Below, one piece after another: positions 11,921-30,442 of a stretch of 32,000 bases of DNA; positions within the stretch are counted from its first letter, which is position 1; each line of letters begins with the position of its first letter. The stretch is from Promethearchaeota archaeon (lineage in GTDB: Archaea > Asgardarchaeota > Lokiarchaeia > Sigyniarchaeales > Promethearchaeaceae), in the NCBI GenBank assembly GCA_016933055.1, contig JAFGBS010000009.1:720001-752000 (forward strand), read 5' to 3'. A program made the position numbers and the translations under genes. The notes under the pieces are model-generated. The model saw nothing but the letters and a program-made list of their open reading frames with translations. It did no database searches and had not been told where the DNA came from.

Positions 11921-13831
11921 ATGACAAATTACAAGAAGCTACATAAATTATCAATTAAAAATCCCAATAAATTCTGGGGAAAAATTGCAGAAGAATTATT
12001 TTGGTACAAAAAACCAGAGAAAATTCTAGATGATTCGAATCCACCATTTTTTCGCTGGTTTGTAGGTGGTAGGACAAATCTATGTTATAATGCAATAGAC
12101 CGATGGGCTAAATTAGATAGTCACAAAGATCGGTCGGCTTATATTTATGAAAATCCTGTGAACGGGGTAACAAAATCCATTTCTTATTCAGAATTATTGA
12201 TTTACGTTCAAAACATCGCAGGGTTATTACAACAATTAGGGTTGAAGAAGGGTGACAGAGTCATTTTCTATCTTCCAATGTCAATTGAAGCGTGTGCTGC
12301 TGCCCTTGCTTGTGTTCGACTTGGGATTATTCACTCCATCATTTTTGCAGGATTTTCTAAGGATGCAATCGCAGTAAGAATCGATGATTGTAAACCTAAA
12401 TTAATAATATGCGGGGATGCTCATGAACGTGCAACTAAAATCACCCCATTGAAACAAATTGTGGATGAAGCAATTGAAACTGCGGAATTTAAAGTTCCTA
12501 AAGTATTAGTTGTGAATTTTGGCATAAAACCTTATAGTCCGGTGGAAGGACGAGATTTAGATTGGGAAAAAGAATTAGAAAAATGCCCGATTAAGGAAGT
12601 GGAATGTGTACAACTAAAGAGCGATGATATTTCATATATATTATACACCAGTGGAACCAGTGGAAAACCAAAAGGCGCTGTTAGAGATACTGCAGGTCAC
12701 ATGGTCGCATTATACTATAGTATTTTTTCCTTATATGGGTGCAAGAAAGATTCAATTTACTTCGCCACTAGTGATATAGGTTGGGTTGTGGGTCATTCTT
12801 ATACAATTTACGCACCCTTAATTGCTGGATTAACTTCAATCGTCTACGATGGCACACCACTTCATGGTGCTGGTGGAGAAGAGAATCCAGGAATTTGGTT
12901 CGCCACAATGAGTAAGCTAAAAACCGATGTAGTATTTAGTAGTCCTACCGCATTACGAATGTTACGGAAATATCCAGAGGAATACATAACCAAACATGAT
13001 CTATCTAATTTGAAGTACCTCTTTCTAGCAGGAGAGCCTTTAGATCCTGCCACTTATGAATGGGCTAAGCGCGTTCTTGGAAAAACCCAGATAATTGACA
13101 ACTACTGGCAAACTGAAACAGGATGGCCCGTATTATGTAATCCTGTAGGAGTGGATAATATTCCGATAGTTCCAGGAAGTCCCACTTTCCCTACTTGGGG
13201 TTGGAATCTTTTAGTTGTAGATGAGAATGGTAAGGAAGTAAAACATGATATGAAAGGATATCTAGTTGCCCGACCCCCAACACCCCCTGGCTTTATGATG
13301 ACCCTATGGGAAGATGATGAACGTTTTGTAAAAGCGTACTACCGAGTATTACCCGGAAATTACTATGCAACGGGTGATTACGCTATAAAAAACACAGAAG
13401 GTTATTTCTTCGTGCTTGGCAGAGCAGATGAGGTCATAAAGGTAGCTGCTCATCGCTTGGGAACTCGGGAAATAGAAGAATTACTCAATAGTCACAAAGC
13501 AGTCGCGGAAAACATGGTTATTGGAATTGCGGATGATGTTAAAGGACAAGTACCTATTGTATTAGTCGTTATCAAGCAAGGAATTGAATGGAATGACATT
13601 GTAAAAACTGAACTTCGGGAGACCATCCGAAAAGGAATTGGACCCATAGCAACTCCTAAAGAAATCTTGTGTGTCAGCAGACTTCCAAAAACCCGATCTG
13701 GAAAAGTAATGAGACGAATTATAAAATCGATTGCAGAAGGTAAGGAGATCGGTGATATTAGTACGATTGAAGACAGAACTGCAGTCGAAGAAGTACGAGA
13801 TGCAATTTATTCCGTCATTAAAACTGACTGA
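11921..13831 (+). CDS. prpE: Propionyl-/acetyl-CoA synthetase (AMP-forming), PrpE/Acs type
   Basis: LYTSGTSGKPKG, SDIGWVVGHSY (PrpE-like), DNYWQTETG, GRADEVIK, LPKTRSGK. SD AGGAG upstream. Confidence 0.92.
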   Translation: MTNYKKLHKLSIKNPNKFWGKIAEELFWYKKPEKILDDSNPPFFRWFVGGRTNLCYNAIDRWAKLDSHKDRSAYIYENPVNGVTKSISYSELLIYVQNIAGLLQQLGLKKGDRVIFYLPMSIEACAAALACVRLGIIHSIIFAGFSKDAIAVRIDDCKPKLIICGDAHERATKITPLKQIVDEAIETAEFKVPKVLVVNFGIKPYSPVEGRDLDWEKELEKCPIKEVECVQLKSDDISYILYTSGTSGKPKGAVRDTAGHMVALYYSIFSLYGCKKDSIYFATSDIGWVVGHSYTIYAPLIAGLTSIVYDGTPLHGAGGEENPGIWFATMSKLKTDVVFSSPTALRMLRKYPEEYITKHDLSNLKYLFLAGEPLDPATYEWAKRVLGKTQIIDNYWQTETGWPVLCNPVGVDNIPIVPGSPTFPTWGWNLLVVDENGKEVKHDMKGYLVARPPTPPGFMMTLWEDDERFVKAYYRVLPGNYYATGDYAIKNTEGYFFVLGRADEVIKVAAHRLGTREIEELLNSHKAVAENMVIGIADDVKGQVPIVLVVIKQGIEWNDIVKTELRETIRKGIGPIATPKEILCVSRLPKTRSGKVMRRIIKSIAEGKEIGDISTIEDRTAVEEVRDAIYSVIKTD

Positions 13832-15556: not shown

Positions 15557-16594
15557 ATGACAATAAACAGAATTCCCTATTTTAACGCAGCGGGAGAGCC
15601 GTATGAAGTCGGTTTTCAGATAGGTGAGCACTTCAAACATAATATCCATAACATTTTTGAGGATTTGTGGGAGTATCAGGTTCATCAGAAAAGGTATCCT
15701 CAAAAAAAATCGTTTATACAACAGATGTTAAATTTATCCCAAAAATTGTGCCCAAAGATTGTTGAGGAAATTCAAGGGCTTGCAGATGGTTCTGGGAGTG
15801 AATTCATGGATCTATTCGTCCATAACTGCATGCATATGCCCTATTGGTCTAATTGCTCCACAAGTGTATTGAAGCAAGAAAATGCTATTTATATAGCACA
15901 TAATGAAGATGCACATCCGGTACTGGAGAAATATGCTTATTACGTGGTTATACAACCAAAAAATCTTGATTCAATCCCCTTTTTCTCCCATTGCTATCCC
16001 GGAATAGTAGCGGGGATGTCATTTGGATTTAATTTGTCAGGTTTAGTGCAAACATGCAATTCTCTTCCTGATCCTACAAGAAGTATTGGCATCCCCCGAA
16101 TATTCGTAGGGAGATCCACTTATGAAAAAGCCAAAACAATTTCAGATGTGTTGAATATCATTGATAAATTAAAACCACGATCTGGTGGAGCAAGTTATAC
16201 TATTGCATCTCTTTCTGAAATGAATGTGATAAACATAGAAACCACTGGAATAGATCATTGCATACTATCTTTTAAGAAACGATTTTTTCGAGCTAATCAC
16301 TATTTATCAGAGGTGTATAGGCATCATCCAGCGGCATCCCTCCACACATTAGCACGTCAAGAACGGGGTAATTCTATGATTAACTCAATCAGAACCGCTG
16401 ATCAATTATTAAAGATGATGTTGGATAAGTCCATTCGACTCACTATGAGCAGTACTCATAACGAATGTCAAACTAATTCAACCCTTTTGTTTGAGATTAC
16501 AGATAATGATGTTGTCCTTAAAAGATATTTAGGAAAAAACCAAAAAGAATTTGATTTAATTAACATGAGGTATCTGGACTCAAAGCAAGATTAA
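15557..16594 (+). CDS. Peptidase C45 family Ntn-hydrolase/acyltransferase (isopenicillin-N N-acyltransferase-like)
   Basis: GEPYEVGFQIG start, EEIQGLADG, autoprocessing NCSTS followed by AHNED, GFNLSG, RANHY. Confidence 0.9.
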   Translation: MTINRIPYFNAAGEPYEVGFQIGEHFKHNIHNIFEDLWEYQVHQKRYPQKKSFIQQMLNLSQKLCPKIVEEIQGLADGSGSEFMDLFVHNCMHMPYWSNCSTSVLKQENAIYIAHNEDAHPVLEKYAYYVVIQPKNLDSIPFFSHCYPGIVAGMSFGFNLSGLVQTCNSLPDPTRSIGIPRIFVGRSTYEKAKTISDVLNIIDKLKPRSGGASYTIASLSEMNVINIETTGIDHCILSFKKRFFRANHYLSEVYRHHPAASLHTLARQERGNSMINSIRTADQLLKMMLDKSIRLTMSSTHNECQTNSTLLFEITDNDVVLKRYLGKNQKEFDLINMRYLDSKQD

Positions 16595-17244
16595 GGTTTC
16601 ACCAATGATCTTAAAGATGTAAGCAGAAACTCTCTAAATTTTTTCAGTCCATCATTTTCTAATATTGATCCGACCGGCTCTAATATATTACTGTGCATTC
16701 TAAATTCATTCTCCATAGAAGTTGCTCCGTGTATCAATGAAAATATGACATATGATAAATATTCAGAGTCGTCTTTCTTTATTTCCCCAACTTTAATTCC
16801 TTCCTGAATCACTTTTTTAACTACATTAAATGGTTTAATTGGAATATAGTTTTTTTCGATTTCTCCCACTATTTTTGACTTTGGAGCGGGGATAAAAAAT
16901 AACATTTGAAAACTATGAAATTCTTTCTGTGCGTAATCCAAATAGAATAATGTGAGTTTTTCGAGAAGATCTATATAAGAACCTGTAAAATTGGAGTAAA
17001 TATCTTCTAATTTTTCTTTTACTCGTTCAAGATCGTATCGGCGGATAGCAATCCAAAGTTCACGTTTACTTGCTACGTAATTATACAAATTTCCATGAGT
17101 CATACCCAACTCTTTAGCAAGTGTACGCATGGAAAATCCAGATGAACCATGTCTAACAAATAATTTTCTTCCCGTCCTAATGATTTCTTCATATAATTTC
17201 TGTTTATCTTCAGCAGATCGTGCAATTTCTTTTTTCTTTCCCAT
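16591..17244 (-). CDS. TetR/AcrR-family transcriptional regulator (WHG-like C-terminal domain)
   Basis: IIRTGRKLFVRHGSSGFSMRTLAKELGMTHGNLYNYVASKREL helix-turn-helix; FQMLF and IFSLIHG. Start refined to ATG 17244 with SD-like GAGGGG upstream. Confidence 0.93.
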   Translation of the reverse strand: MGKKKEIARSAEDKQKLYEEIIRTGRKLFVRHGSSGFSMRTLAKELGMTHGNLYNYVASKRELWIAIRRYDLERVKEKLEDIYSNFTGSYIDLLEKLTLFYLDYAQKEFHSFQMLFFIPAPKSKIVGEIEKNYIPIKPFNVVKKVIQEGIKVGEIKKDDSEYLSYVIFSLIHGATSMENEFRMHSNILEPVGSILENDGLKKFREFLLTSLRSLVKP

Positions 17245-17308
17245 CAAATTACCCCTCATGAATAAATTTGTTACAATGATGTAGAGATTCAAATGTTTTA
17301 TTATCTTG

Positions 17309-18529
17309 TTATTTATGGATAGCATAAGCTAGTAAAAAGTGAAAACTTGTTCCATCTAAAATAGAATCAATATTTCCATACTCATTGGGAGTATCATGAT
17401 TACCCCCTTCATTTCCTGCGACCATTATTGATAAAATCCCCTTAAGAATACCTATATTCATATTAGTAGATCCCATGTCACTCAGAAATACTTCTTTTCC
17501 TAATTTTATTGTAATATATTCTGCAAATTTTACGAGTTGTGAATTCTTCGCATCCGAGATCTGAGCAGCTGGTAGATCCTTATAAATCTCAATTTGATAC
17601 TTGAAATCATACTTGTTTGCAATATTTTCACTGATATGGGTTATCTTTTCGAATAGTTTATTTAAAATCTCGTTGTCATAACTACGCAAATCGACAGATA
17701 ACCAACCCTTTTCGGGTTTATGATTAAAACTCTTACCTGATTTAACCATTCCGATATTAATATACGCTCCAGTCAATTGTATCTTTCCTATACCCAAATT
17801 GTGATAATTTTGATTATTTAAATTTTCTCTTGATGGTAATGGAATTTCAAAAATCTGAGTGATCGCTTCCGCAAGTGCTACATTCACATTTGGTAATCCT
17901 CCAGATAAAGTATGACCACTTGGACCATAAAAATGGACTTTGAGCATTTTTATACCTAAAGCTCCATAAAAAATTCTGCCAAATCCTCCCATAATATCTA
18001 TCACATAATCAATGTCATCATTTTCTTGTAGAAAAAATCTAATTCCTCCAAAATCTTGCTCTTCTTGTACCACTGCTACCAAATATATAGTACCGCTGAG
18101 TTCAGTTTTTTTAGCAAACAACAATTTCGCAAGTGCTATCAAAGTGACGCATGATCCCGTGATTAAAGTTCCAGGTCCGACGATTTTGTCGTTTTCAATA
18201 CGCACTGGAAATTTTTTAGAATTCACCCGATCAGCAATGGTAATGAGATCATCCATTGTACATAAAAATGCCGTAGTAGGTCCTTTTTTTTTTGTTTGAA
18301 GGATCCCTATAACATTTCCAACTTGATCGATATAAACGTGGGGAATGCCCATTTGTAATAATTTTTTCTTGATATATTCAGCTCGTTTGGATTCCCCTCC
18401 CGATGGGGAATAAATACTGGCAAGAGTCAACCAATTCTCAATCAGTTCCTTTTTATTTGAATAAAGAGATTCAAGAATACCGCAGGATTTTATTTCACGC
18501 AAGATTTCGTCAATTTGTTGTTGAATCAT
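17309..18529 (-). CDS. M20/M25/M40-family metallo-hydrolase homologue with degenerate metal ligands
   Basis: SPSGGESKRA, DQVGNVIG, VQEE, GPSGHT, NIGMV, VDLRS and GST fit the fold. Ligand motifs read LCTMD, PGTLIT and NHDTPNE. Confidence 0.85.
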   Translation of the reverse strand: MIQQQIDEILREIKSCGILESLYSNKKELIENWLTLASIYSPSGGESKRAEYIKKKLLQMGIPHVYIDQVGNVIGILQTKKKGPTTAFLCTMDDLITIADRVNSKKFPVRIENDKIVGPGTLITGSCVTLIALAKLLFAKKTELSGTIYLVAVVQEEQDFGGIRFFLQENDDIDYVIDIMGGFGRIFYGALGIKMLKVHFYGPSGHTLSGGLPNVNVALAEAITQIFEIPLPSRENLNNQNYHNLGIGKIQLTGAYINIGMVKSGKSFNHKPEKGWLSVDLRSYDNEILNKLFEKITHISENIANKYDFKYQIEIYKDLPAAQISDAKNSQLVKFAEYITIKLGKEVFLSDMGSTNMNIGILKGILSIMVAGNEGGNHDTPNEYGNIDSILDGTSFHFLLAYAIHK

Positions 18530-20330
18530 TTTGAATCATTGGGATGTCCACAAAGGAGGGATTATCTTTAGTATGATATATAGTATATATTGATGAGGAT
18601 TCCAAATCTTTTGGATAGATTGAGAAATTATCTTTATCTGCACCTGCAATTGCAATCCGTATTTGCATTCCTTTATCGATCCAAACGGAAATTGGCTCTA
18701 ATGCAAAACTGATATTATAGATTTTATCTGGAGTCAAATATTCCGCATCCTTCTGTTTGAAACTACGATAAGGTATTGGAGATTTATAAGGTGAGCTTTC
18801 TTGTGCGAGTTTCCAATGAATTAATCTCAACATTCCTTCACTGAGATAATAGACTTTATCATTGTGCACTAACTCGAAATATACAAATAATGAACCATCT
18901 TCATGAGTTGAACTTAGAGATAAATTTATTATCGGATGCCCTGTAACTTCTAGAGAATTAGTGATGGGTTCACTAGTAAACGTAAGTAACTTGGTATCTT
19001 CTTTCGAACGATTCTTATAAATTACTGGATTGTAAAATTGAGTTCGCCATCGATTTGTAGTTCCCGTTGTAGTAGAATAATTAACTTGATACGTGCTTAT
19101 TGCATCTGAATCTAGTGGGGGTTCAAATGATAACGTGTTATTAGGGTGAAAATAGAATTTTTTATATTCTTGATTGTCTGGTGGCCATTTTGAAGTCGAT
19201 TTCCACTTTTGTTGTCTGATAGTGAAATAATAAAGAACTTTTGGAATTCTGTCCGGGTCCTTCAAACATCTTTTTGCAAATCGAATTTTTTCCTGTAGCT
19301 GGACAAATTCTGAAGGGATTGAACGAGATTTGGATTTTTGAAATGGATTTCCATCTAAATACATCCCATGATTCCAGGATCCGATGATAGCAATATGAGG
19401 ATTCTCATAATTTAAGAAACGATGAATCACACCTGTTGCAGTCGTTGCATCGAACCAAGAACCGCAACTCATTATAGGGGTACCATTTTTAGAAATTTTA
19501 TTCGTATAGGTGTACACAGAGATATCATCGATTGTCCTCCCCGTCACTTTGTCGAAAATATCATCTCTATAATCAATCGATTTTGCTATCTCATAGACAT
19601 TGGGATTATGGGCATGTTGATGTATGAAATCATCTAATTTAGATGTGTTCTCACGTCCTTGAACTGGTTTTACTCCCTTAATGAGTATTTTCAAAAAAAA
19701 TGGATAGGGAAGATTTTTAATTTGATTTCGATCCAAATCGGAATTTGCGAGACCCCAATTTTTAACAAACCATTCCATAAAGACTCCACCAGGATATGCG
19801 ATATCAGTATACACATCATATTCATTCTCACAAACAATATGTCCCTTAATAGCGGGATGATAGACTGTTGCCGATAATTCAGAAGTCGTTGCAGAATAAG
19901 ATAATCCAAAAGTAATGATATCTCCATCTGACCATGGTTGTTGTGTAATCCATTCAGCAATTGAATTCATATCTTGAATTTCACATTGGGACCACGGAGA
20001 GGTACGAACTCCTGATGATGCTCCGCTTCCTCTGACATCTACGCGAACTAAGTTAAATCCCGCATCAATTAAGGGTTTGAATCTCTGAAGGTCTATTTTT
20101 TCAATCCATCGAAATCCTGTCCGGTATTGGGTTGCTCGCCAATATCGAGTTTGATGCAAGAAAGTAGGTCTTTTTTCAGTAAATCCCCTTTCTAATATGA
20201 TGTCTGCAGCAATTTCAGTGCCATCGGGCATAGTAATATAGTCAGAATTAATCGAAAATCGTTTTTTAGATCTATTTTTTTTATCTGTCGGAAGATCTTC
20301 AAAAATTCCAAATTTGTTTGGCATATTCAC
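18510..20330 (-). CDS. CocE/NonD-family serine hydrolase (S15/Xaa-Pro dipeptidyl-peptidase fold)
   Basis: MPDGTEIAADI, QTRY, VDVRGSGASSG and triad GLSYSA/GSWFD/GSWNHG, with a C-terminal jelly-roll region. GTG start has SD-like GGGGT. Confidence 0.93.
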   Translation of the reverse strand: MNMPNKFGIFEDLPTDKKNRSKKRFSINSDYITMPDGTEIAADIILERGFTEKRPTFLHQTRYWRATQYRTGFRWIEKIDLQRFKPLIDAGFNLVRVDVRGSGASSGVRTSPWSQCEIQDMNSIAEWITQQPWSDGDIITFGLSYSATTSELSATVYHPAIKGHIVCENEYDVYTDIAYPGGVFMEWFVKNWGLANSDLDRNQIKNLPYPFFLKILIKGVKPVQGRENTSKLDDFIHQHAHNPNVYEIAKSIDYRDDIFDKVTGRTIDDISVYTYTNKISKNGTPIMSCGSWFDATTATGVIHRFLNYENPHIAIIGSWNHGMYLDGNPFQKSKSRSIPSEFVQLQEKIRFAKRCLKDPDRIPKVLYYFTIRQQKWKSTSKWPPDNQEYKKFYFHPNNTLSFEPPLDSDAISTYQVNYSTTTGTTNRWRTQFYNPVIYKNRSKEDTKLLTFTSEPITNSLEVTGHPIINLSLSSTHEDGSLFVYFELVHNDKVYYLSEGMLRLIHWKLAQESSPYKSPIPYRSFKQKDAEYLTPDKIYNISFALEPISVWIDKGMQIRIAIAGADKDNFSIYPKDLESSSIYTIYHTKDNPSFVDIPMIQNDSTTN

Positions 20331-20360
20331 GATTTTTACCCCAATAAAATAATAAAGGAG

Positions 20361-21791
20361 TTATAATTTGAGTTCTGCTAGCTTGATTTGTATCTCCGTA
20401 ATTTTTGTTTTATTTAGTTCAAATCTTAGTATGAAGAAAATCCATACGATACCTAGTAATATGCCTGGTATAAATCCTAAATGTGCTCGAATCCCCCAAA
20501 TAGCTGAAATTGGTTGTAATGCAACCTCTGCCTCGGGAATAAAACCAGTGATCATATGCACTCCGAGAATTATAACGGTAACTAACGCGGTCCCGAGTAT
20601 AATAAAGAAATTAAAAATTCCCAGATATGTCGCGCGATCATTTTTCTTGTGAGCCAATGTCATCTCATCTAAAATAGCTCCTCTCACGGGATTGAATGTG
20701 ATTCCAAATAAGCTACTCGCTAATCCATTAACAAACATAAGGATCATTGACAATTCGATAGTTGTTGCAAAACCTAAAGAAAATAACGAAATTGCATAAA
20801 AAGCAATAGCGATCTTATAAGAAGTAACACTCCCTAGCTTCTTTGCCATCCAAATCCAAAAAGGCAATAAAGCTAGTACACCTAACACATATGGTACTGC
20901 GACGAGTATTTGTATTTCAAATCCACGAAATGTTATCCCAAGAAATGTATATTCACTTGGTACAAGATAATCTGACCAATAAGGAACGCTAGCAAACATC
21001 ATTGTATCCATCATTACTCCAATTACTTGTGCAAGCAAAAATACACGGAAATTTTTAAATTTAAATCCTTTTGCTGCTGTCCTAAAAAAGTCCCGTAAAT
21101 TTGGTCTTCCTTCTGATGAATTTAATGCAAATTCGATCATTTCCTTATCTTCTTTCAAACCAGGTATGGACAAACCTAAGCATGTGAGACTTAAAACTGC
21201 AGATATAGCAGTCATAATTAGATAATTGTTCAGATTATTGGAAGTTTGAGACGCATCTACAGTGAGGGAGGGTATGACAATTCCAAGTACAAATCCAATT
21301 TGTAGCATGATAGTTTTAATTCCCATGACTCTCGTTCGTTCTTTATCACTACGAAATTTCTCTAAAAGTAATGCATCATAATTCATTGTCCATATAGTGA
21401 GAAAACTATCAAAAATAACTAAAGACCCAAGATACCAAAGAGAGTTTCCCAAATTTCCCTGTGTGGGAGGGAAAAAAACCGCAATAAGGCAGATGTTAAG
21501 AGGAATAGCCGAACTAACTATCCATATAAACCGTTTTCCCCATTTCTTCCAAAATCTTTTGGGTTTGTCACTTATATACCCAAACAATGGATCATTTATT
21601 GCATTCCAAATTACATACACAACATTTACAATTATGAGGAAAATAGGTTCCACTAAAATGACTGTCTCATAAAAATGAAGTAGGTATGTGCGCAAGATAG
21701 AAGACATTAATCCGATTCCAAGAGTTGAAAACGTAAAGGAGAGGATGTTCCAAAATGAATGCCTTTTTGACAATATTTCTTCTTGTGTCAT
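20361..21791 (-). CDS. MFS transporter, GPH (Na+/melibiose-like) family
   Basis: WNAINDPLFGYISD...GKRFIW GPH signature and about 12 TM helices. Confidence 0.92.
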   Translation of the reverse strand: MTQEEILSKRHSFWNILSFTFSTLGIGLMSSILRTYLLHFYETVILVEPIFLIIVNVVYVIWNAINDPLFGYISDKPKRFWKKWGKRFIWIVSSAIPLNICLIAVFFPPTQGNLGNSLWYLGSLVIFDSFLTIWTMNYDALLLEKFRSDKERTRVMGIKTIMLQIGFVLGIVIPSLTVDASQTSNNLNNYLIMTAISAVLSLTCLGLSIPGLKEDKEMIEFALNSSEGRPNLRDFFRTAAKGFKFKNFRVFLLAQVIGVMMDTMMFASVPYWSDYLVPSEYTFLGITFRGFEIQILVAVPYVLGVLALLPFWIWMAKKLGSVTSYKIAIAFYAISLFSLGFATTIELSMILMFVNGLASSLFGITFNPVRGAILDEMTLAHKKNDRATYLGIFNFFIILGTALVTVIILGVHMITGFIPEAEVALQPISAIWGIRAHLGFIPGILLGIVWIFFILRFELNKTKITEIQIKLAELKL

Positions 21792-21801
21792 TTTTTTTTT
21801 T

Positions 21802-21820
21802 CACTGACCTATGGTTAGTG
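21802..21820. promoter_or_regulatory. Operator copy 1: CACTGACC-TAT-GGTTAGTG, upstream of the MFS-CocE-M20-TetR operon
   Basis: 19-bp palindrome with one mismatch, 10 nt from the ATG. Minus-strand TATA TTTTAAAT at 21829-21836. Confidence 0.8.
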
Positions 21821-21906
21821 TATTATTTATTTAAAATTATTGTTCATTAAGTTCCGATCATATACAATATTCAACTATTTCTTTCTGGGAAAATGAAAAA
21901 AAGTAG

Positions 21907-22665
21907 TTAATTAAATGATGTCCACCGTTTTTTCAAGCGTTCTCCTGGAACATATCCAATTGATATATTGATAGCAGCAATTATACCTAAAACCCACCCC
22001 AGAGTAACAAAAACAAAATTATAGATCAACTCATGCAACACGAACAACAATGTAGTTCCAGATAGTAAAATACCGGTTAATGCGATGAATAATAATCCTT
22101 TATGGATAATCATTTCCTCATTGGATTTTGATTGCATTTTACTTCTGATTCGAAATGCACTAATAGTTAATGAACCATAAATCGTTAAAGAACATAAAAT
22201 TAGAAGCACGAAAGGAGCATATTCGATCAATTCTGTAATAATTATAATTCCTGTAAAATCGAGATACCACACTACCCAAATTATCGGAATAACAAGGATC
22301 TCTAAAATAACGAAAATCCAATAAAAAAAGTTATTAATTTGTTCATCGAATACCGTTCGAGTGAATGCAAACAATAATACATTACTTACAGCCAAGCAAG
22401 TGAAAGACATATTCGAAAAAAAGAAGGTTTGAGCAAAAGTAGGTATCCATAAATTCGCTAAATGATAGGAAGATTCAAAAAATGCTGCTAAAGTAAGGAA
22501 TAGGATCGAAAAAGTCATATATGATAATGCTTTTGAACGATTCCTGTTCAATTTGGCACTCATTAATCCAAAAATAATAAAACCGATAATTGTGGATATT
22601 GCTGCACCTATAAAAGCGACCCAAGGATTTTTGAACACTAAATCCAGCCATGGAGTTTGTTCCAT
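21907..22665 (-). CDS. Hypothetical 7-TM membrane protein
   Basis: Seven hydrophobic segments of about 20-25 aa by inspection, no soluble output domain, short basic C-tail (ERLKKRW). Confidence 0.85.
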   Translation of the reverse strand: MEQTPWLDLVFKNPWVAFIGAAISTIIGFIIFGLMSAKLNRNRSKALSYMTFSILFLTLAAFFESSYHLANLWIPTFAQTFFFSNMSFTCLAVSNVLLFAFTRTVFDEQINNFFYWIFVILEILVIPIIWVVWYLDFTGIIIITELIEYAPFVLLILCSLTIYGSLTISAFRIRSKMQSKSNEEMIIHKGLLFIALTGILLSGTTLLFVLHELIYNFVFVTLGWVLGIIAAINISIGYVPGERLKKRWTSFN

Positions 22666-22672
22666 TTTTCTT

Positions 22673-22691
22673 CACTGAACAATGGTTAATG
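22673..22691. promoter_or_regulatory. Operator copy 2: CACTGAAC-AAT-GGTTAATG, upstream of the 7-TM gene
   Basis: Same 19-bp motif, 7 nt from the ATG. TATA TTTATAAA at 22713-22720. Confidence 0.72.
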
Positions 22692-22823
22692 CTTTCAAAA
22701 TCAGTCTAAACCTTTATAAATATATTGATCACGTTATGGTAGAATTCCTTCAAACTTGTCTTAAAACCAATTTAGACGAGTAATTAGAGCGTTGTAGTAA
22801 GTTTTTTATAAAACATGATCGAA

Positions 22824-22842
22824 TAATAACCATCGGTTAGTA
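22824..22842. promoter_or_regulatory. Operator copy 3: TAATAACC-ATC-GGTTAGTA, upstream of the crotonase-CoA ligase operon
   Basis: 19-bp palindrome with one mismatch. TATA TTTATAAA at 22805-22812. A weaker copy TAAAGACC-CGA-GGTTAAAA follows at 22841-22859. Confidence 0.8.
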
Positions 22843-22860
22843 AAGACCCGAGGTTAAAAA

Positions 22861-23655
22861 ATGGACTCAAAAGTATTGTATAATCAAGAAGGAAGAATTG
22901 GTATAATTACACTCAATAATCCGGAGAAGGGAAACCCGATTGACATGGAAACTATGCGTGGGTTGATCGATGCCTATAAAACCAGCGCTAAAAATAATGA
23001 TCGAATAGTTCTGTACATGGCAAAAGGTAAGCATTTTACTGTGGGAGATAACCTCAAGGAGGGATTTGAAATAATGACTAATCCTGGTCTCCGATCTGAG
23101 GGTATTGAAACGGTATTAAACTGGCAAGAGTTAACAAGTACGATGTTAGCACATCCTGGAATAATAATTGTTGGGTATCATGGTTGGGTGATTGGAGGGG
23201 GATATGAACATACTCTTTGGTGTGATTTCAAAATTGCAGCAAAATCCACTACATTTATGCTCCCTGAACTAAGTATGGGAATTTTTTTCTCCAATGCTAG
23301 CACAAAATTACTTCCCCATTTAGTTGGATTGAATAAGGCTAAGGAAATTATGATGCTGGGAGATATGTTTGGGGCTTCGGAAGCTAAAGAATTAGGTTTG
23401 GTTCATCAAGTGTGTGCTGATGAGAAACTAGAGAAAAGAATGCGGAGATTGGCTCAGAAACTATTAGAAAAAGACGAATTAGCCCTTAAAAGAGCGAAGG
23501 AAATGCTTCTTTATGCTTTAGATTCTCCTCTAGATGAAGTGTTGTATAAAGAAACAAGAATAATGATAGAAACCGCTCAATCTCCGGAAGCAAAAAAACG
23601 TGTTGGAGAGTTTGTTAAAAAGAGTAAAAAAGAAGGGGAAAAAAAGGAGGAATGA
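22861..23655 (+). CDS. Enoyl-CoA hydratase/isomerase (crotonase) family
   Basis: ITLNNPEKGN, IGGGYE...CD and MLPE with both Glu positions present, KEIMMLG. ATGA overlap with the next gene. Confidence 0.93.
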   Translation: MDSKVLYNQEGRIGIITLNNPEKGNPIDMETMRGLIDAYKTSAKNNDRIVLYMAKGKHFTVGDNLKEGFEIMTNPGLRSEGIETVLNWQELTSTMLAHPGIIIVGYHGWVIGGGYEHTLWCDFKIAAKSTTFMLPELSMGIFFSNASTKLLPHLVGLNKAKEIMMLGDMFGASEAKELGLVHQVCADEKLEKRMRRLAQKLLEKDELALKRAKEMLLYALDSPLDEVLYKETRIMIETAQSPEAKKRVGEFVKKSKKEGEKKEE

Positions 23656-25268
23656 ACATGGGTTTACCAAAAAGAGAACTTTTTCATGAATATATCGATT
23701 ATTGGGCGGAAGTTGATTCTAATTTTCCTTCAATTAAGTATAGTGGAAAGGGGATACTCACTGCTGGTGAATTAAAAGAACTTTCGTTAAAAGCAGCGAC
23801 GGGATTTTATGAGATGGGAGTTCGAAAAGGAGATACGATTGTAACTGTGTTAACCACCATTCCTGAATTCATAATAACATGGATTGCTGCGAGTCGTATA
23901 GGTGCTATCGTAGTTCCCATGGATGTTAATTACAAGCGAACGGACTTCTTGAACATGATTCCTCATTCTCAGCCAAAGGTTGTTGTTTCATTGAAAAAAT
24001 TCCATAAGAATAAGATCGCAAGTACCTTATTCGAAATAAAAGAACATCTGGGAAATGTTATCTACATAGTTAAGGGGGATCATAAATTAGGAATTTCTTG
24101 GTCAGAATTTATTGAAAAAGATTATTCGTCAGAAAAGATTTTTCCTCTTCAAGGACATATCGATGAAAATGACACAATTCTCATAGTTTGGACAGGGGGC
24201 TCAACTGGATCTCCAAAAGCAGTTTGTTTATCCCATAAAAATGTCGTATCAATGATTCTTCATGAAGTGCGCAAAGTATGCGACTTTCTTGGTAAAAAAC
24301 CTGGTGCAGACAGATTTGTTTGGTTAGCAAATTTGCCTGTTAGTCATGTTGGTGGTTCAGTAGAAATGCTGGGAACGGGTTTAATTGGAGGTTTGAAACT
24401 TAGATTGCAGAAAGAATGGTCGCCTTGGCCTGCTCTCCAAGTAATGCAAAATGAAAAGACATTGTTTGCGGGAGGAGTTCCTACTATGTTTTCTATTTGG
24501 ACCGCTCTTCCCGATCTTTTGGAATATAACTTAAAATCTACACTAAAGGTCGCGTTTATGTCTGGAGATAAAGTTTCTCTTCATCTTTTAAATAAAATTT
24601 CAGAAAAAATGTGTGAAACTATTATTGTTGGTTATGGGAGCACAGAGGCTGGAGCAGAGGTTTCTTTTTCAGAACCGGGAGATTCTTATGAAGATCTAGC
24701 AAATGGGTATGTTGGAAAACCATTACCTGGAGTCGATATAATAGTTGTGGATGAAAATGGTAGTGTTCTTCCTCCTAATCAAGATGGAGAGATTTTGGTT
24801 AAAGGAGATATCACAAGTCAGAATTATTTTAATATGCCCGAAGAAACGAAACGTGGATTTTCAGAAGATGGATATTGTAAAACAGGAGATTTAGGACACT
24901 TGGATGGGAATGGTGGATTATGGATTACGGGTCGGATCAAATTCATCATACGGGTAGGCTCCTATACTGTTTTACCATCCGAGATCGAAGATATTGTGAA
25001 TAAACAAAAAAATGTTCTGGTTTCTGCAGCATTTGGTGTACCTGATGAGAAATATGGCGAAGTTGTGTGGCTGGTAATCGGTCCCGAACCTGGTACAACT
25101 GTTAACGAAACCGAAATCATGGAGCGACTTACCGAAGAGTTAGCGAATTACAAATTACCGCGAAAAATATTAAATTATGAAGTGGATGCAGCGAATATGC
25201 CTTTCACAAGTATTGGAAAAGTGGATCGACCGCGAATACAACAAGAACTGAATATTCCCAAAAAATAA
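23652..25268 (+). CDS. Acyl-CoA synthetase (AMP-forming, class I adenylate-forming enzyme)
   Basis: WTGGSTGSPK P-loop, LPVSH, GYGSTE, KTGDLG, GRIK, TSIGKV. Confidence 0.92.
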   Translation: MNMGLPKRELFHEYIDYWAEVDSNFPSIKYSGKGILTAGELKELSLKAATGFYEMGVRKGDTIVTVLTTIPEFIITWIAASRIGAIVVPMDVNYKRTDFLNMIPHSQPKVVVSLKKFHKNKIASTLFEIKEHLGNVIYIVKGDHKLGISWSEFIEKDYSSEKIFPLQGHIDENDTILIVWTGGSTGSPKAVCLSHKNVVSMILHEVRKVCDFLGKKPGADRFVWLANLPVSHVGGSVEMLGTGLIGGLKLRLQKEWSPWPALQVMQNEKTLFAGGVPTMFSIWTALPDLLEYNLKSTLKVAFMSGDKVSLHLLNKISEKMCETIIVGYGSTEAGAEVSFSEPGDSYEDLANGYVGKPLPGVDIIVVDENGSVLPPNQDGEILVKGDITSQNYFNMPEETKRGFSEDGYCKTGDLGHLDGNGGLWITGRIKFIIRVGSYTVLPSEIEDIVNKQKNVLVSAAFGVPDEKYGEVVWLVIGPEPGTTVNETEIMERLTEELANYKLPRKILNYEVDAANMPFTSIGKVDRPRIQQELNIPKK

Positions 25269-25304
25269 TTGATCTATTATATTTTGAAAAAATTGGTGAA
25301 AAAA

Positions 25305-26762
25305 ATGAAAATTATGAATAAAATAAAAGAAATTGAGGATAAAGAGCTTAAACGTGGATTAAGCTTACCAATGACTATATTTATAATTGTAGGATTAGTG
25401 ATTGGCTCCTCTATCTGGCTAAATCCCGCTGCAAAATTGAACGAAGCAGGTCCTTCCGTTTGGCTTGCTTATCTGTTAGCAGTTATTCCCTCAATTTTTG
25501 TTGCTTATGTGACCGCATATATTGGCTCTGCTTTACCCGTTTCGGGCGGTACTTATGTAGTGATCAGTCGTTCAGTGAATCCGTTTATTGGATTTATGAG
25601 CTTATGGGCTGTTATTCTTGCAGTATCTACGACATTAGCCACCATGGCTGCTACTTTTGGCACTTTTTTGAATGATATTATTGGTATCAGCAATTCCACA
25701 ATGCAAATATTATTCGTTATTGGCGTTGGCGTAGCGATTCTGGCAATTTTTTATTTGTTAAACCTTCTTCACGTAAGTATTTCGGGAGTAGTTGAGATAG
25801 TTATCACACTTCTGGGAGATCTACTTGTGATGATGATATTTATTTTCGCTGCGTTTAAAAATATTAAAGCCGAGAACTTAACTCCCATGTTTCCCAATGG
25901 ATTCAGTCCCGTATTAGTTGCAACACTTGTTTTCACTTTTTCGTATGCGGGTTTTTCCGCAGTAATTGATGTAGCAGGTGAAGTAAAGAATCCCAAAAAA
26001 AATATTCCAAGAGCATTAGCTATTTCTATTCCGATTTTAGTTGTCTTATATACAATTCAAGCATTTGTTGTGGCAGGAATTCAAGACTATGCAGTTCCGG
26101 TGGGAACCGTCACTGAAATTATCCTTAATTTGGGAATTCTACCTGAGTGGCTGGTGGATATAATGGTAATACTGATTGCTATAGCAATTGCATCGACGAT
26201 TCATCCCGTATTTTTGGCATATTCAAGAGACATACTTATTGGTGGTAGGGATAAAATTCTTCCAAACATATTTGCGAAAGTAAATGAAAAACGCCGTATT
26301 CCAGGTCCAGCTTTGACTTTAATTCTAATTCTTAGTGTTGTTATTTTAGTCGTTTACCTCTCCATTCTTGGCCCTGTAATTGGAATTGCACTTACCGATG
26401 CAATTTTGGTATTGAGCTCTGTTTCTGCCGTAAGTGTATTATTCGCCCAAGTTTTTGTATGTGTCGCAGCACTTAAATTTCCCAAGAAATTTCCCGAATT
26501 ACATGAATCTGCTGGATTCAAACCTAAGATAAATGTATTAAAAATTATGGCTTGGTTAGGATTGATAACGTCTGTTTTATTTTTGCTTATAGTGTTCGTA
26601 GATTTCACGATAGCTTTGTATGTCGCACTTTCATTTGTGCCTTTTATGATAATCGGAATAATATATTATTTAATTCGAAAAGCGACACTTAAAAAACAAG
26701 GAGTGAATATTTCTGAGACATTATCAGTGTGGCCAAAAGAAATTACCATTTCTAAGTCTTAA
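25305..26762 (+). CDS. APC-family amino acid/polyamine permease
   Basis: LVIGSSIW, PVSGGTYV, FSYAGF, AGEVKNPKKNIPRA and about 12 TM helices. Start refined to ATG 25305 with SD GGTGA. Confidence 0.93.
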   Translation: MKIMNKIKEIEDKELKRGLSLPMTIFIIVGLVIGSSIWLNPAAKLNEAGPSVWLAYLLAVIPSIFVAYVTAYIGSALPVSGGTYVVISRSVNPFIGFMSLWAVILAVSTTLATMAATFGTFLNDIIGISNSTMQILFVIGVGVAILAIFYLLNLLHVSISGVVEIVITLLGDLLVMMIFIFAAFKNIKAENLTPMFPNGFSPVLVATLVFTFSYAGFSAVIDVAGEVKNPKKNIPRALAISIPILVVLYTIQAFVVAGIQDYAVPVGTVTEIILNLGILPEWLVDIMVILIAIAIASTIHPVFLAYSRDILIGGRDKILPNIFAKVNEKRRIPGPALTLILILSVVILVVYLSILGPVIGIALTDAILVLSSVSAVSVLFAQVFVCVAALKFPKKFPELHESAGFKPKINVLKIMAWLGLITSVLFLLIVFVDFTIALYVALSFVPFMIIGIIYYLIRKATLKKQGVNISETLSVWPKEITISKS

Positions 26763-26801
26763 ATCAAAAATTAAATAATTAGTGAGAACAAGTGATGTAT
26801 T

Positions 26802-27803
26802 ATGATGGCAAATAATACTCTACTCCTCACTAAATCCGATTTGGAATCACTTATTACCATTCAAGATATGATTTCTACGATTGAAGATGCATTCCGAAAA
26901 CACGGAGAGGGTAAATCTTTCGGCATGGATATGATACATGGGGTTACTCCTTCTGAGCTAGAATTCCACATTAAGGTTGGTGGAATTACACTTGGTGATA
27001 AAAAATACTATGGATTGAAAATTAACGCTAGTAATTTCTCGAACATGGATAAACATGGATTACCCAATATCATTGGTGCTATTCTCCTATTTGATGGTAC
27101 TACTGGATTTCCGTTAGCTATTGTAGATTCAATTATACCTACCATATTACGCACGGGGGCGGGTACGGCAGTAGCTATGAAATATCTTGCTCGTCCTGAT
27201 TCTAAAATTGCAACTATTTGCGGTTGTGGGACTCAAGGACGAATTCAATTACGTTCCATAAAAACCGTTCTTCCTCTTGAGAGAGTTTTTGCTTTTGACA
27301 TGGACTATAAAAGGGCTGAGATATATGCAAATGAAATGACAGACGAATTAGGTATGCAAATCGAATCAGTTAAAAATCTTGAAGAAGCGACAGTCAAATC
27401 AGATGTTATAATAACTTGCACGCCTTCTAAATCTCCATTCTTAAGGAAGGAATATGTTAACTATGGAACAACTATAGGAGCAATAGGAGCAGACAGTCCG
27501 GATAAGCAAGAATTAGAGACAAAATTACTTAAAGGAAATAAAGTTGTAGTAGATATACTTAAGCAATGTGCGGTTGCGGGGGAACTTCATCATGCTCTGG
27601 AAGAAAAATTGATCACAATAACCGATGTGCATGCAGAACTTGGTGAAATATTGACCGGTAAAAAAACAGGCAGAGAGAAACGGGACGAGATCATAATTTA
27701 TGACGCTACTGGAACGGCTATTCAAGACACTGCTTCGGTGGCAGTTTGTTATGAAAAAGCAGTTTCAAAGAATATTGGAACCTATATTGCTCTAAACCAC
27801 TAA
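26802..27803 (+). CDS. Ornithine cyclodeaminase/mu-crystallin family (archaeal alanine dehydrogenase or imine reductase type)
   Basis: FHIKVG, RTGAGTAVA, GCGTQG Rossmann motif, GADSPDKQE, YDATGTAIQD. Confidence 0.93.
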   Translation: MMANNTLLLTKSDLESLITIQDMISTIEDAFRKHGEGKSFGMDMIHGVTPSELEFHIKVGGITLGDKKYYGLKINASNFSNMDKHGLPNIIGAILLFDGTTGFPLAIVDSIIPTILRTGAGTAVAMKYLARPDSKIATICGCGTQGRIQLRSIKTVLPLERVFAFDMDYKRAEIYANEMTDELGMQIESVKNLEEATVKSDVIITCTPSKSPFLRKEYVNYGTTIGAIGADSPDKQELETKLLKGNKVVVDILKQCAVAGELHHALEEKLITITDVHAELGEILTGKKTGREKRDEIIIYDATGTAIQDTASVAVCYEKAVSKNIGTYIALNH

Positions 27804-27839
27804 ATCTGTCATCAAAAATAACATATTGGAAATCATACT

Positions 27840-28700
27840 ATGTCGCTATTTGCAGCAGATTTTTCTCAATCCTATGAAAAGAATGGATTAAGCCAAGAAA
27901 TGATTCAGATTTTTCAGCAAATTATCTGGGATTATTACAATTCTCATCCCCGGGAATTTCCTTGGAGGGTGACAAGAAATCCTTATCATATATTTATCTC
28001 TGAATGGATGCTTCAGCAAACGCAGACCTCTTCAGTCGTACCAAAATATAAGGAATTTATATCTAAACTACCCACATTCTCAGATTTAGCAAACACATCA
28101 ATGGATGAGGTAGTTAAACTCTGGCAAGGATTAGGGTATAATCGTCGAGCAATATGGATGAAATCTGCTGCAGAATCAATTGTAAGGGAGTATAACGGAA
28201 CTCTTCCAAAAGATCCGGATCATCTTGAAAAAATTAAAGGCATTGGACATGCAACGGCTCGAGAAATGGTTACATTTGCATATAATATCCCAACAGTATT
28301 TATTGAAACGAATATTCGAAGAGTATTTTTGCATTTATTCTTTCACAACAAGAATCAAGTAAAAGACACGGAAATATTGTCATTGGTTGGGCAGACGGTG
28401 GATATAACTAATCCACGAGAATGGTATTATGCGTTGATGGATTATGGAGTAATGTTGAAAAAAACACTACAGCCTGATCCAAATCGCAGGAGTTATCATT
28501 ACAAAAAACAACCGAAATTTGAAGGCTCTAATCGAGAATTGCGTGGTAAAATTTTACGTTTGAAGATCACAAATCCCGAAATTACGAATATCACCATTTC
28601 TCAAAAACTAAAATCTCCCCTCGAAAAAATAAATGAACTAGTTACAAAAATGGAAGAAGAAGGATTTTTTGAGAAATCTCTTAAAACAACTAGTGAATAA
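27840..28700 (+). CDS. mutY: A/G-specific adenine DNA glycosylase, MutY-like, short form without Fe-S cluster
   Basis: FPWR, SEWMLQQTQ, WQGLGYNRRA, HhH KGIGHATA, ETNIRR and ALMDYG. No Cys-cluster motif. Confidence 0.9.
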   Translation: MSLFAADFSQSYEKNGLSQEMIQIFQQIIWDYYNSHPREFPWRVTRNPYHIFISEWMLQQTQTSSVVPKYKEFISKLPTFSDLANTSMDEVVKLWQGLGYNRRAIWMKSAAESIVREYNGTLPKDPDHLEKIKGIGHATAREMVTFAYNIPTVFIETNIRRVFLHLFFHNKNQVKDTEILSLVGQTVDITNPREWYYALMDYGVMLKKTLQPDPNRRSYHYKKQPKFEGSNRELRGKILRLKITNPEITNITISQKLKSPLEKINELVTKMEEEGFFEKSLKTTSE

Positions 28701-28799
28701 TTAAGGAGATTATCGTTTTTATATGAATAGGAGATATATTTCAAATCTTATAATCTAAGCAAAAATTATTAAGATCGAACTCTATCCAAAATAATATAA

Positions 28800-29581: not shown

Positions 29582-30442
29582 ATGTTTCGTAAGCAAGAAG
29601 AGTATTATTCTACTGAAATGGAGCAGGAACTCAACCAAAAGCTCGCTATATTTTATGAAAAAATTCGAGGAAAAAAAATACTGATCGGTTTGACGGGTGG
29701 ATTAAAATCCTATATGCTGGTGGAATTAGCGCGACCAGTTGTTACCGAGATGAAATGTATGTTTGTAGAAACTTCTTATACATCTCCCAGTGATTTAGAA
29801 TATGTGAGAAATTTTAAAAAAAACGATGATAATGCAGAGATTGAAACCGATGTTATCCAAAAACTTGATTTAAATCAAAATATACTTATTTTAAATTCTG
29901 ATGAGCGAGATTTTTTCTGTAAAAAAGGCATTGCAGATATACTGGAAAAAGAGCGTTCTTCAAATGGATACGACGTAATACTAGATGGAACAGCTGGTGA
30001 ACAATTCCAATCATTTTGGAATGGGAAACAAAAATTTGGAGATAATTATTTGATGATATTTGGGGAACTAGGTATATTCAGAGAGGATGTCGTTTATCTG
30101 TCAAAAAAACATGGATTTAAATTCAATAGACCCCCGGAAATTAACTTACTGTCAAGATTTGCTTATAATATACCAATAACCGAAGATTTACTCAAATTAG
30201 TTGTAGTGATGGAGGGATTTCTCAAAAATTTAACAAATAATGATCTTGTCCGAGTGCGAATCCTTGATAAGGACCATATTATTATTGAGACAGGGCAAAA
30301 AGAACTATCTCGCCTTTTAGATGAAAAAACTCGAAAAAAAATATATAATGAATTTAGCGATAAAGGATTTTCCTCTATAAATATCGATCTTGCTGGATAT
30401 CGACGAAATAACTTATTTAAAGCATCAAAAAATACACTTTAA
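29582..30442 (+). CDS. LarE-like PP-loop protein (sulfur-transferase homologue) with degenerate active site
   Basis: LIGLTGGLKS, FFCKK, ILDGT, LSRFAYNIPIT, VRVR and GFSSINIDLAGYR follow the LarE motif order. Start refined to ATG 29582. Confidence 0.8.
   Translation: MFRKQEEYYSTEMEQELNQKLAIFYEKIRGKKILIGLTGGLKSYMLVELARPVVTEMKCMFVETSYTSPSDLEYVRNFKKNDDNAEIETDVIQKLDLNQNILILNSDERDFFCKKGIADILEKERSSNGYDVILDGTAGEQFQSFWNGKQKFGDNYLMIFGELGIFREDVVYLSKKHGFKFNRPPEINLLSRFAYNIPITEDLLKLVVVMEGFLKNLTNNDLVRVRILDKDHIIIETGQKELSRLLDEKTRKKIYNEFSDKGFSSINIDLAGYRRNNLFKASKNTL

Follow-up and report, generated by a model that had tools for sequence, protein, structure and literature searches.

A predicted TetR regulon over hydrolase, acyl-CoA ligase and transporter genes in a Promethearchaeota archaeon

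Which genes are controlled by a TetR-family regulator encoded in the genome of a Promethearchaeota archaeon, and what kind of compound would they serve to degrade? The question is raised by a run of nine genes within a 32-kb stretch of DNA (the window: positions 720001-752000 of contig C17, JAFGBS010000009.1, in a genome of 3.76 Mb). The Asgard origin agrees with the Promethearchaeota or Lokiarchaeota names borne by homologues of the ligase, CocE and TetR proteins and with genes for Ras/Arf-type GTPases on the contig. An earlier note on this DNA had described the nine genes as a self-contained, TetR-controlled catabolic system of three transcription units. All nine were present in the list of open reading frames, with domains assigned by Pfam and NCBIfam. 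Unit A encodes an MFS_2 transporter, a CocE/NonD hydrolase, an M20-fold protein and the TetR regulator; unit B encodes a single seven-transmembrane (7-TM) protein; the divergent unit C encodes a crotonase-family enzyme of the enoyl-CoA hydratase (ECH) type, an acyl-CoA ligase, an APC permease and an OCD/mu-crystallin family enzyme. The best single reading of the locus, which we hold to be probable, is a local regulon in which a Promethearchaeota-specific TetR repressor would act on all three units of a conjugate-splitting pathway.

Predicted palindromic operators and their probable regulator

An 18-nucleotide (nt) directional motif, TAACCATNGKTYAGTRAA, was found at 21800-21817 (- strand), 22671-22688 (- strand) and 22827-22844 (+ strand), each copy being oriented like the gene behind it. 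Each copy forms the core of a palindrome of 19 bp, in which a spacer of 3 nt separates two arms of 8 nt, and the palindromes stop 10, 7 and 18 nt short of the ATG of the MFS, 7-TM and crotonase genes, respectively. The claim that one operator is shared by all three unit starts was thus borne out in the form expected of a TetR-family operator, a palindrome at adjacent target promoters. The motif is essentially unique to the locus, with no further exact copy in the 3.76-Mb genome and only one copy with a single mismatch. Sixty column-permuted patterns gave on average 0.37 hits per genome at up to one mismatch, compared with four observed. Three motif hits were not reached in any of 100 shuffles of the window, a figure that is circular, the pattern having been derived from those sites. 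Rfam gave no match in a scan of 16000-28500 (E≤0.1), so the motif is not accounted for by any known riboswitch or leader.

Every palindrome is preceded, at a distance of 8-21 nt, by a TATA-like box (Table 1). From this position and the usual archaeal distance between TATA box and start, transcription would be initiated within the palindrome or at its edge, and a bound dimer would therefore block initiation. Ahead of the crotonase gene a weaker second palindrome (22845-22857) begins 18 nt after the first, probably forming a tandem pair of sites; the identical 18-nt tandem spacing was seen in L054 (at 5042 and 5060), one of the loci fetched for comparison (labelled L). The single one-mismatch copy lies 530 kb from the locus (C17:212141-212158, equal to L028:7142-7159) and has the layout TATA box, site, 7 nt, ATG. 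The genes behind it encode a 658-aa protein, in which a neutral-ceramidase-like N-terminal region is fused to a PIG-L deacetylase domain (L028:5158-7134, - strand), and then an MFS_2 carrier (L028:3631-5034, - strand). Given its placement and gene content (an amide hydrolase and a carrier), this remote site is a plausible candidate for a fourth target, though it may also have arisen by chance. Motif hits in L027 (within a 940-aa open reading frame) and in L029 (within an MFS gene) were judged to be chance.

The regulator carries the TetR_N helix-turn-helix (HTH) domain (PF00440, 36.4 bits; cut-off 24) and, at 217 aa, is a TetR-family protein. Its start was placed at ATG 17244 because the resulting length matches those of the homologues and GAGGGG lies 7 nt upstream. 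A search of 5.8 billion proteins at E≤1e-20 placed it in a small subfamily of Promethearchaeota with 24 members, in which the recognition-helix stretch is nearly invariant, as judged from an alignment of five homologues. The closest TetR (64% identity) is encoded on a 4.2-kb metagenome contig (L068) of divergent design like that of the window: an ECH gene (69% identity) followed by a partial ligase gene runs divergently from the TetR gene and a CocE gene (45%) behind it, and the 144-nt spacer between them holds a perfect 8-3-8 palindrome with the core TTACC-N3-GGTAA. In the closely related loci L054 and L069, DUF998, ligase and ECH genes are divergent from APC and TetR genes. TAATC-N3-GATTA palindromes stand beside the divergent start codons, four in L054 and at least two in L069, compared with a background of about 4 per Mb in the genome of the window. 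L051 showed merely weak half-site-like repeats far from start codons. Since the palindromes of L068, L054 and L069 lie near TetR homologues and the recognition helix is nearly invariant, we regard these palindromes as putative sites of this TetR subfamily, for which the comparative evidence is good.

Proteins of the three units and the proposed pathway

Coordinates of the genes and of the operator copies are collected in Table 1. The gaps of 30, -20 and 64 bp given for unit A in the earlier note were correct: the MFS and CocE genes are 30 nt apart, the CocE and M20 genes overlap by 20 nt, and the M20 and TetR genes are separated by 64 nt if TetR starts at ATG 17244 (the open reading frame from 17325 overlaps the M20 gene by 17 nt). 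These genes are presumably co-transcribed, as are those of unit C. A T7 run right after the stop codon of the 7-TM gene (21890-21906, - strand) fits termination of unit B ahead of a separate MFS promoter.

Table 1. Genes of the locus and predicted operator copies (positions in the window)
Feature	Position	Strand	Domains or motifs	Place
TetR regulator (TetR_N)	longest open reading frame 16591-17325; from ATG 17244, 16594-17244	-		last gene, unit A
M20-fold protein (Peptidase_M20)	17309-18529	-	PF01546, 46.6 bits	unit A
CocE/NonD (S15) serine hydrolase, 604-606 aa	18510-20330	-	Peptidase_S15 + PepX_C, TIGR00976	unit A
MFS_2 (GPH-like) transporter	20361-21791	-	PF13347	first gene, unit A
7-TM protein, 252 aa, no Pfam family	21907-22665	-	about seven hydrophobic segments	unit B
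Crotonase-family enzyme, enoyl-CoA hydratase type (ECH_1)	22861-23655	+	PF00378	first gene, unit C
AMP-forming acyl-CoA ligase (ANL family)	23652-25268	+	PF00501 + PF13193	unit C
APC-superfamily amino-acid permease (AA_permease_2)	25269-26762	+	PF13520 + PF00324	unit C
OCD/mu-crystallin family enzyme	26802-27803	+	PF02423 (OCD_Mu_crystall)	unit C
Predicted operator copy A	21802-21820	-	palindrome CACTAACC-ATA-GGTCAGTG (- strand); TATA-like box 21829-21836	10 nt to MFS ATG
Predicted operator copy B	22673-22691	-	TATA-like box 22713-22720	7 nt to 7-TM ATG
Predicted operator copy C	22824-22857, core 22827-22839	+	TATA-like box 22805-22812	ahead of ECH ATG 22861

The CocE protein matched both domains of its family (PF02129, 109.6 bits; PF08530, 96.8 bits) and scored 266.7 against TIGR00976 CocE_NonD (cut-off 66.3). 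CocE/NonD hydrolases (MEROPS S15) include the Rhodococcus cocaine esterase and alpha-amino-acid ester hydrolases. The protein shares with them the Peptidase_S15 and PepX_C architecture, the GxSYxG nucleophile elbow and a triad Asp and His in the usual motifs. Ser144 (GLSYS), Asp294 (WFD) and His321 (WNH) all fall in conserved columns, which from the motifs of cocaine esterase we take to be those of the triad; the catalytic residues are intact. The resemblance to solved members is remote (best 3ib3, E=1.8e-13 over 100 residues), and no homologue above 46% identity was found among 5.8 billion proteins. Two CocE paralogues, L013:9154-10866 (C16:14653-16365 of the same genome) and L002:1095-2807 (G001), are divergent from a paralogous TetR gene (44% identity). 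In these the nucleophile Ser is replaced by Asp, and the C16 copy also has Gln for the triad His; they look like altered or inactive hydrolases retained beside a regulator.

The M20 protein had been called degenerate, and its metal ligands are indeed substituted or lost: Thr takes the place of the His in the HxD motif, a deletion removes the bridging Asp and the C-terminal His is missing, while the EE pair is kept. The fold is present, and the dinuclear metal site of an M20 metallopeptidase is incomplete. Exactly these changes recur in five of the 12 nearest full-length relatives (P0266, P0268, P0271, P0278 and P0281), sister sequences being canonical, which argues for a conserved non-canonical subfamily and not for a decaying gene. 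The transporter belongs to the broad MFS_2 family only (PF13347, 170 bits), scoring 77 against a cut-off of 231 for the GPH symporters (TIGR00792); MFS_2 genes adjoin CocE homologues in L009/L019, L020, L027, L064, L065 and L067.

The 7-TM protein had no Pfam or NCBIfam match. Hydropathy gave about seven hydrophobic segments, and its Atlas model resembles the stand-alone 7TMR-DISM/HisKA_7TM membrane sensor modules (TM-score 0.62-0.73), which are modules of histidine kinases and diguanylate cyclases. A paralogue on contig C6 has an uninformative neighbourhood. A small DUF998 membrane protein heads the ligase-ECH operon in L054 (5073-5747), L069 (7432-8085) and L070 (9221-9787), all of them TetR-carrying loci, and takes the operator-side place that is held in the window by the unrelated 7-TM gene; kinship between the two proteins was considered and rejected, as no similarity was detectable.

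In unit C, the crotonase (PF00378, 136.7 bits) retains both catalytic Glu motifs, GGGyE and PE, in alignments to 2pbp and 5zai, as expected of an enoyl-CoA hydratase. The ligase is a member of the ANL family (PF00501, 205 bits; PF13193, 34 bits); its best NCBIfam subfamily scored 281 against a cut-off of 476, and the solved structures closest to it are those of 4-coumarate-, oxalate- and malonyl-CoA ligases. The OCD protein (PF02423, 236 bits) scored 267 against TIGR02371, archaeal alanine dehydrogenase (cut-off 409), and matched 1omo (4e-67) and 6t3e (7e-58), which by homology assigns it to the alanine-dehydrogenase/pyrroline-2-carboxylate-reductase branch of archaea. All enzymes of the cluster are distant from solved structures of known specificity, and none reaches an NCBIfam equivalog cut-off. 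Specific functions considered and rejected at that cut-off were MenE/MenB, hydroxycinnamoyl-CoA hydratase-lyase, CaiC/CaiD, EutC and archaeal alanine dehydrogenase.

From these assignments we infer the following scheme. TetR dimers would bind the 19-bp palindrome through its core TAACC-N3-GGTTA, just downstream of the TATA box and over the expected transcription start of the three promoters, and would thereby repress unit A with its metal-ligand-less M20 protein, the sensor-like unit B and unit C. Unit A would import an ester- or amide-linked conjugate and cleave it. The ligase would turn the released carboxylic acid into a CoA thioester, which the crotonase would hydrate or dehydrate, or from which it would eliminate a beta substituent. 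TetR would be released from the DNA by this thioester or by the free acid. Because ligase and crotonase come without a dehydrogenase, the cluster suits a 3-hydroxy, enoic or beta-amino acid and not a saturated fatty acid. No acyl-CoA dehydrogenase, 3-hydroxyacyl-CoA dehydrogenase or thiolase is encoded within the 32-kb window; other parts of the same genome have genes for acyl-CoA dehydrogenases, a hydroxyacyl-CoA dehydrogenase and thiolases, and further oxidation would fall to such enzymes. With these genes lying elsewhere and a fourth operator-like site 530 kb away, the system is not self-contained as had been proposed. The hydrolases tied to the regulon or to its relatives are the CocE and M20 proteins, a C45 Ntn-hydrolase that neighbours the cluster both in the window and in L064, a Pab87-type beta-lactamase-fold enzyme and the ceramidase-like/PIG-L fusion. 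Since all are of amide or ester type, an acylated amine or amino-acid conjugate would fit as the substrate.

Several neighbouring genes were also recorded. The C45 gene (acyl-CoA:6-APA acyltransferase-type, 15557-16594) is convergent with the TetR gene, and its unit is not preceded by an operator copy. One C45 homologue (L064:1401-2477) adjoins an MFS_2 carrier beside a ligase-ECH-CocE array, and another (L029:9099-10190, on contig C30 of the same genome) lies near an MFS_2 gene and an HlyIII/PAQR gene. Beyond unit C, 36 nt after the OCD gene and without an intervening T-run, follows an HhH-GPD glycosylase-like gene with a C-terminal winged helix (27840-28700; region 27804-28720); a T5 run occurs only beyond the stop codon of this gene, and unit C may extend into it. 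The region is flanked by a second AMP-forming ligase of acetyl-CoA-synthetase type (11921-13831) and a class-III aminotransferase (30439-31812), with an operator copy at neither. About 30% of the sampled words of window positions 18500-27800 were found in a hot-spring metagenome run of another study (X2), and a near-identical strain may thus live in a second habitat.

Recurrence in related archaea and competing readings

The neighbourhoods of CocE homologues (37-47% identity) were examined in 40 relatives, and the OCD, M20 and 7-TM proteins were searched in 300 genomes of the phylum. Around CocE homologues, only pairs of TetR and CocE or of CocE and MFS genes were seen in the 40 relatives. Homologues of the ligase (49-55% identity) were always accompanied by ECH, and in eleven of the fetched loci, some of which are near-duplicates, this pair is adjoined by APC homologues (47-56% identity). 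Members of the TetR subfamily sit in the ligase/ECH/APC loci L054, L069, L070 and L051. L064 and L065 each have CocE, ligase, ECH and MFS_2 genes pointing in one direction, and in L033 the ligase gene has a CocE fragment at a distance of 5 kb. The conservation of the cluster, which the earlier note had proposed to check, therefore has two sides: the nine-gene block was not found elsewhere, but its core (TetR, CocE, ECH, ligase, APC and MFS) recurs in other Promethearchaeota. The locus probably originated by a lineage-specific fusion of a TetR/MFS/CocE module with a TetR/APC/ligase/crotonase module, each found apart in related archaea, the M20, 7-TM and OCD genes being local additions. The idea of a conjugate-splitting pathway likewise held in part. 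It is supported by the linkage of TetR, CocE, ECH and ligase in L068 and of CocE, ligase, ECH and MFS_2 in L064 and L065, but the APC-ligase-ECH trio of hydrolase-free loci fits a CoA-dependent processing of amino acids equally well.

A number of observations weigh against a conjugate-splitting regulon. The full nine-gene arrangement occurs in no other genome or contig searched. Among the 300 phylum genomes, the OCD protein had no match at E≤1e-70, the M20 protein none at E≤1e-30 and the 7-TM protein no close match, with genus-level homologues only (33-34% identity). The supposed arm in which APC and OCD proteins take up and process the amino half was accordingly overstated, resting as it does on adjacency in one genome. 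Most ligase-ECH loci are without CocE; their partners are an ELFV-type amino-acid dehydrogenase, a pyridoxal-phosphate enzyme resembling ACC-deaminase or D-cysteine desulfhydrase, a metallo-beta-lactamase-fold protein and sometimes M20, and because of this set of partners the module of unit C points to amino-acid rather than conjugate catabolism. No solved acyl-CoA-sensing TetR is close to the regulator (best PDB E-value 1e-6, covering the HTH only). The aligned spacers of the paralogous TetR-CocE pairs (C16, G001) show no comparable palindrome, and a site like the remote fourth one is expected by sequence chance in roughly one third of genomes. Finally, no operator copy precedes the TetR gene itself; negative autoregulation, as claimed earlier, goes too far, for it hinges on read-through from the MFS promoter.

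Ranked second, a serious alternative though in our view rather unlikely, is the same regulon with another chemistry, in which the APC permease, ligase and crotonase act on an imported amino acid itself and no acid and amine halves arise. The ligase would make an aminoacyl-CoA (for example of a beta-amino acid) from which ammonia would be split off by the crotonase-family enzyme, on the pattern of beta-valine degradation in Pseudomonas sp. SBV1; CocE and M20 would supply the amino acid from peptides, esters or amides imported by the MFS carrier, and the OCD enzyme would handle a second amino or imino acid. Consistent with this, most of the eleven fetched loci with the APC-ligase-ECH trio are without any hydrolase and none has an acyl-CoA dehydrogenase, the archaeal loci have deaminating enzymes as their other partners, and the gene of P0266, to which the M20 protein is most closely related, is flanked by genes for M14 and M28 peptidases. 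In SBV1, the genes for an amino-acid transporter, the CoA ligase BvaA and the ECH-family ammonia lyase BvaB1 are adjacent, and the lyases retain both crotonase Glu residues (PMC4619459). BvaA, however, is of PaaK type and the ligase described here of FadD/4-coumarate type; moreover, CocE, ligase and ECH genes also share operons with an MFS carrier in place of the APC permease (L065, L064), and sequence does not separate a hydratase from an ammonia lyase.

A broader form of the same idea can be put forward only tentatively: the APC-ligase-crotonase set with its dedicated TetR subfamily may represent a Promethearchaeota-wide, undescribed CoA-dependent route for an unusual amino acid, with the ligase forming an aminoacyl-CoA and the crotonase as ammonia lyase, that is wired here through one operator to hydrolases freeing this amino acid from ester or amide conjugates of the environment. 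Least probable of all, in our judgement, is that the locus is a patchwork of uptake and hydrolase genes without a common pathway, or that the palindrome belongs to another regulator or to a duplicated promoter cassette: the nine-gene block is confined to this genome, three of its genes are lineage-specific, a 27-nt direct repeat that takes in the A-rich leader is common to copies A and B and could reflect duplication, and the regulator next to the L064 cluster has an HTH_5/MarR-type and not a TetR domain, but copy C has the motif in the opposite genomic orientation and lacks the flanks of A and B, 5-3-5 palindromes stand beside TetR homologues in three other loci of at least two lineages, and TetR, CocE, ECH and ligase genes are linked in L068.

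Relation to described systems and significance

The closest described precedent for the TetR regulon that we favour is FadR of Sulfolobus acidocaldarius (FadR-Sa, Saci_1107), a TetR-family repressor with four genomic sites that acts on the lipase/beta-oxidation cluster Saci_1103-1126 and is released by acyl-CoA; a TetR-controlled archaeal cluster of esterase and acyl-CoA genes is thus already on record (PMC6449355). Both are archaeal TetR-family local repressors with a handful of dyad-symmetric genomic sites, which are predicted from sequence in the present case, and in both the regulator gene lies inside a cluster of several transcription units with ester hydrolases and acyl-CoA enzymes. One FadR-Sa site lies just after a transcription start, and the dimer-of-dimers mode of FadR-Sa would have its counterpart in the tandem sites predicted here. 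In contrast to most FadR-Sa sites, which are far upstream, all three sites of the locus are promoter-adjacent. The cluster also differs in content, having two transporters, a CocE/NonD hydrolase and an OCD-family enzyme, but no acyl-CoA dehydrogenase, hydroxyacyl-CoA dehydrogenase or thiolase, so that the beta-oxidation set of a FadR-type cluster is absent from the 32-kb window. A specific sequence relationship was not detectable: the regulator scored 24 bits against the NCBIfam model of Bacillus FadR (cut-off 200), FadR chains in the PDB gave E=5.6e-4 or weaker, and FadR-Sa was absent from its PDB matches at E≤0.01.

The second system compared is the beta-valine pathway of SBV1, with its transporter, the CoA ligase BvaA and the crotonase-family ammonia lyases BvaB1 and BvaB2 (PMC4619459). 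The locus resembles it in the adjacency of genes that are predicted here to encode an APC-type transporter, a CoA ligase of the AMP-forming kind and a crotonase-family protein with both Glu residues, and in that an acyl-CoA dehydrogenase step is not needed. It differs in the type of ligase (FadD/4CL-like here, PaaK-like there) and in its regulator; the SBV1 system is, besides, bacterial and placed within a leucine-catabolic cluster. In our literature search, neither this cluster nor CocE/NonD proteins of Lokiarchaeota, other Asgard archaea or archaea at large were the subject of any paper, and searches combining Asgard archaea with TetR and enoyl-CoA hydratase returned general metabolism papers only.

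Together, these data describe a predicted catabolic regulon that is well supported but fairly ordinary and whose nine-gene form joins two recurrent modules in a lineage-specific manner. Control of a catabolic cluster by a TetR repressor is a common general design. With that design also shown already in an archaeon, the value of the finding lies in annotation and in experimental access and not in a new principle. To our knowledge, predictions of transcription-factor regulons in Asgard archaea are very few. The locus offers a concrete, testable case, with a small TetR subfamily, an operator geometry over the predicted transcription start and a defined set of targets, and the recurrent ligase-crotonase-permease module of the Promethearchaeota could reveal which organic compounds these sediment archaea eat.

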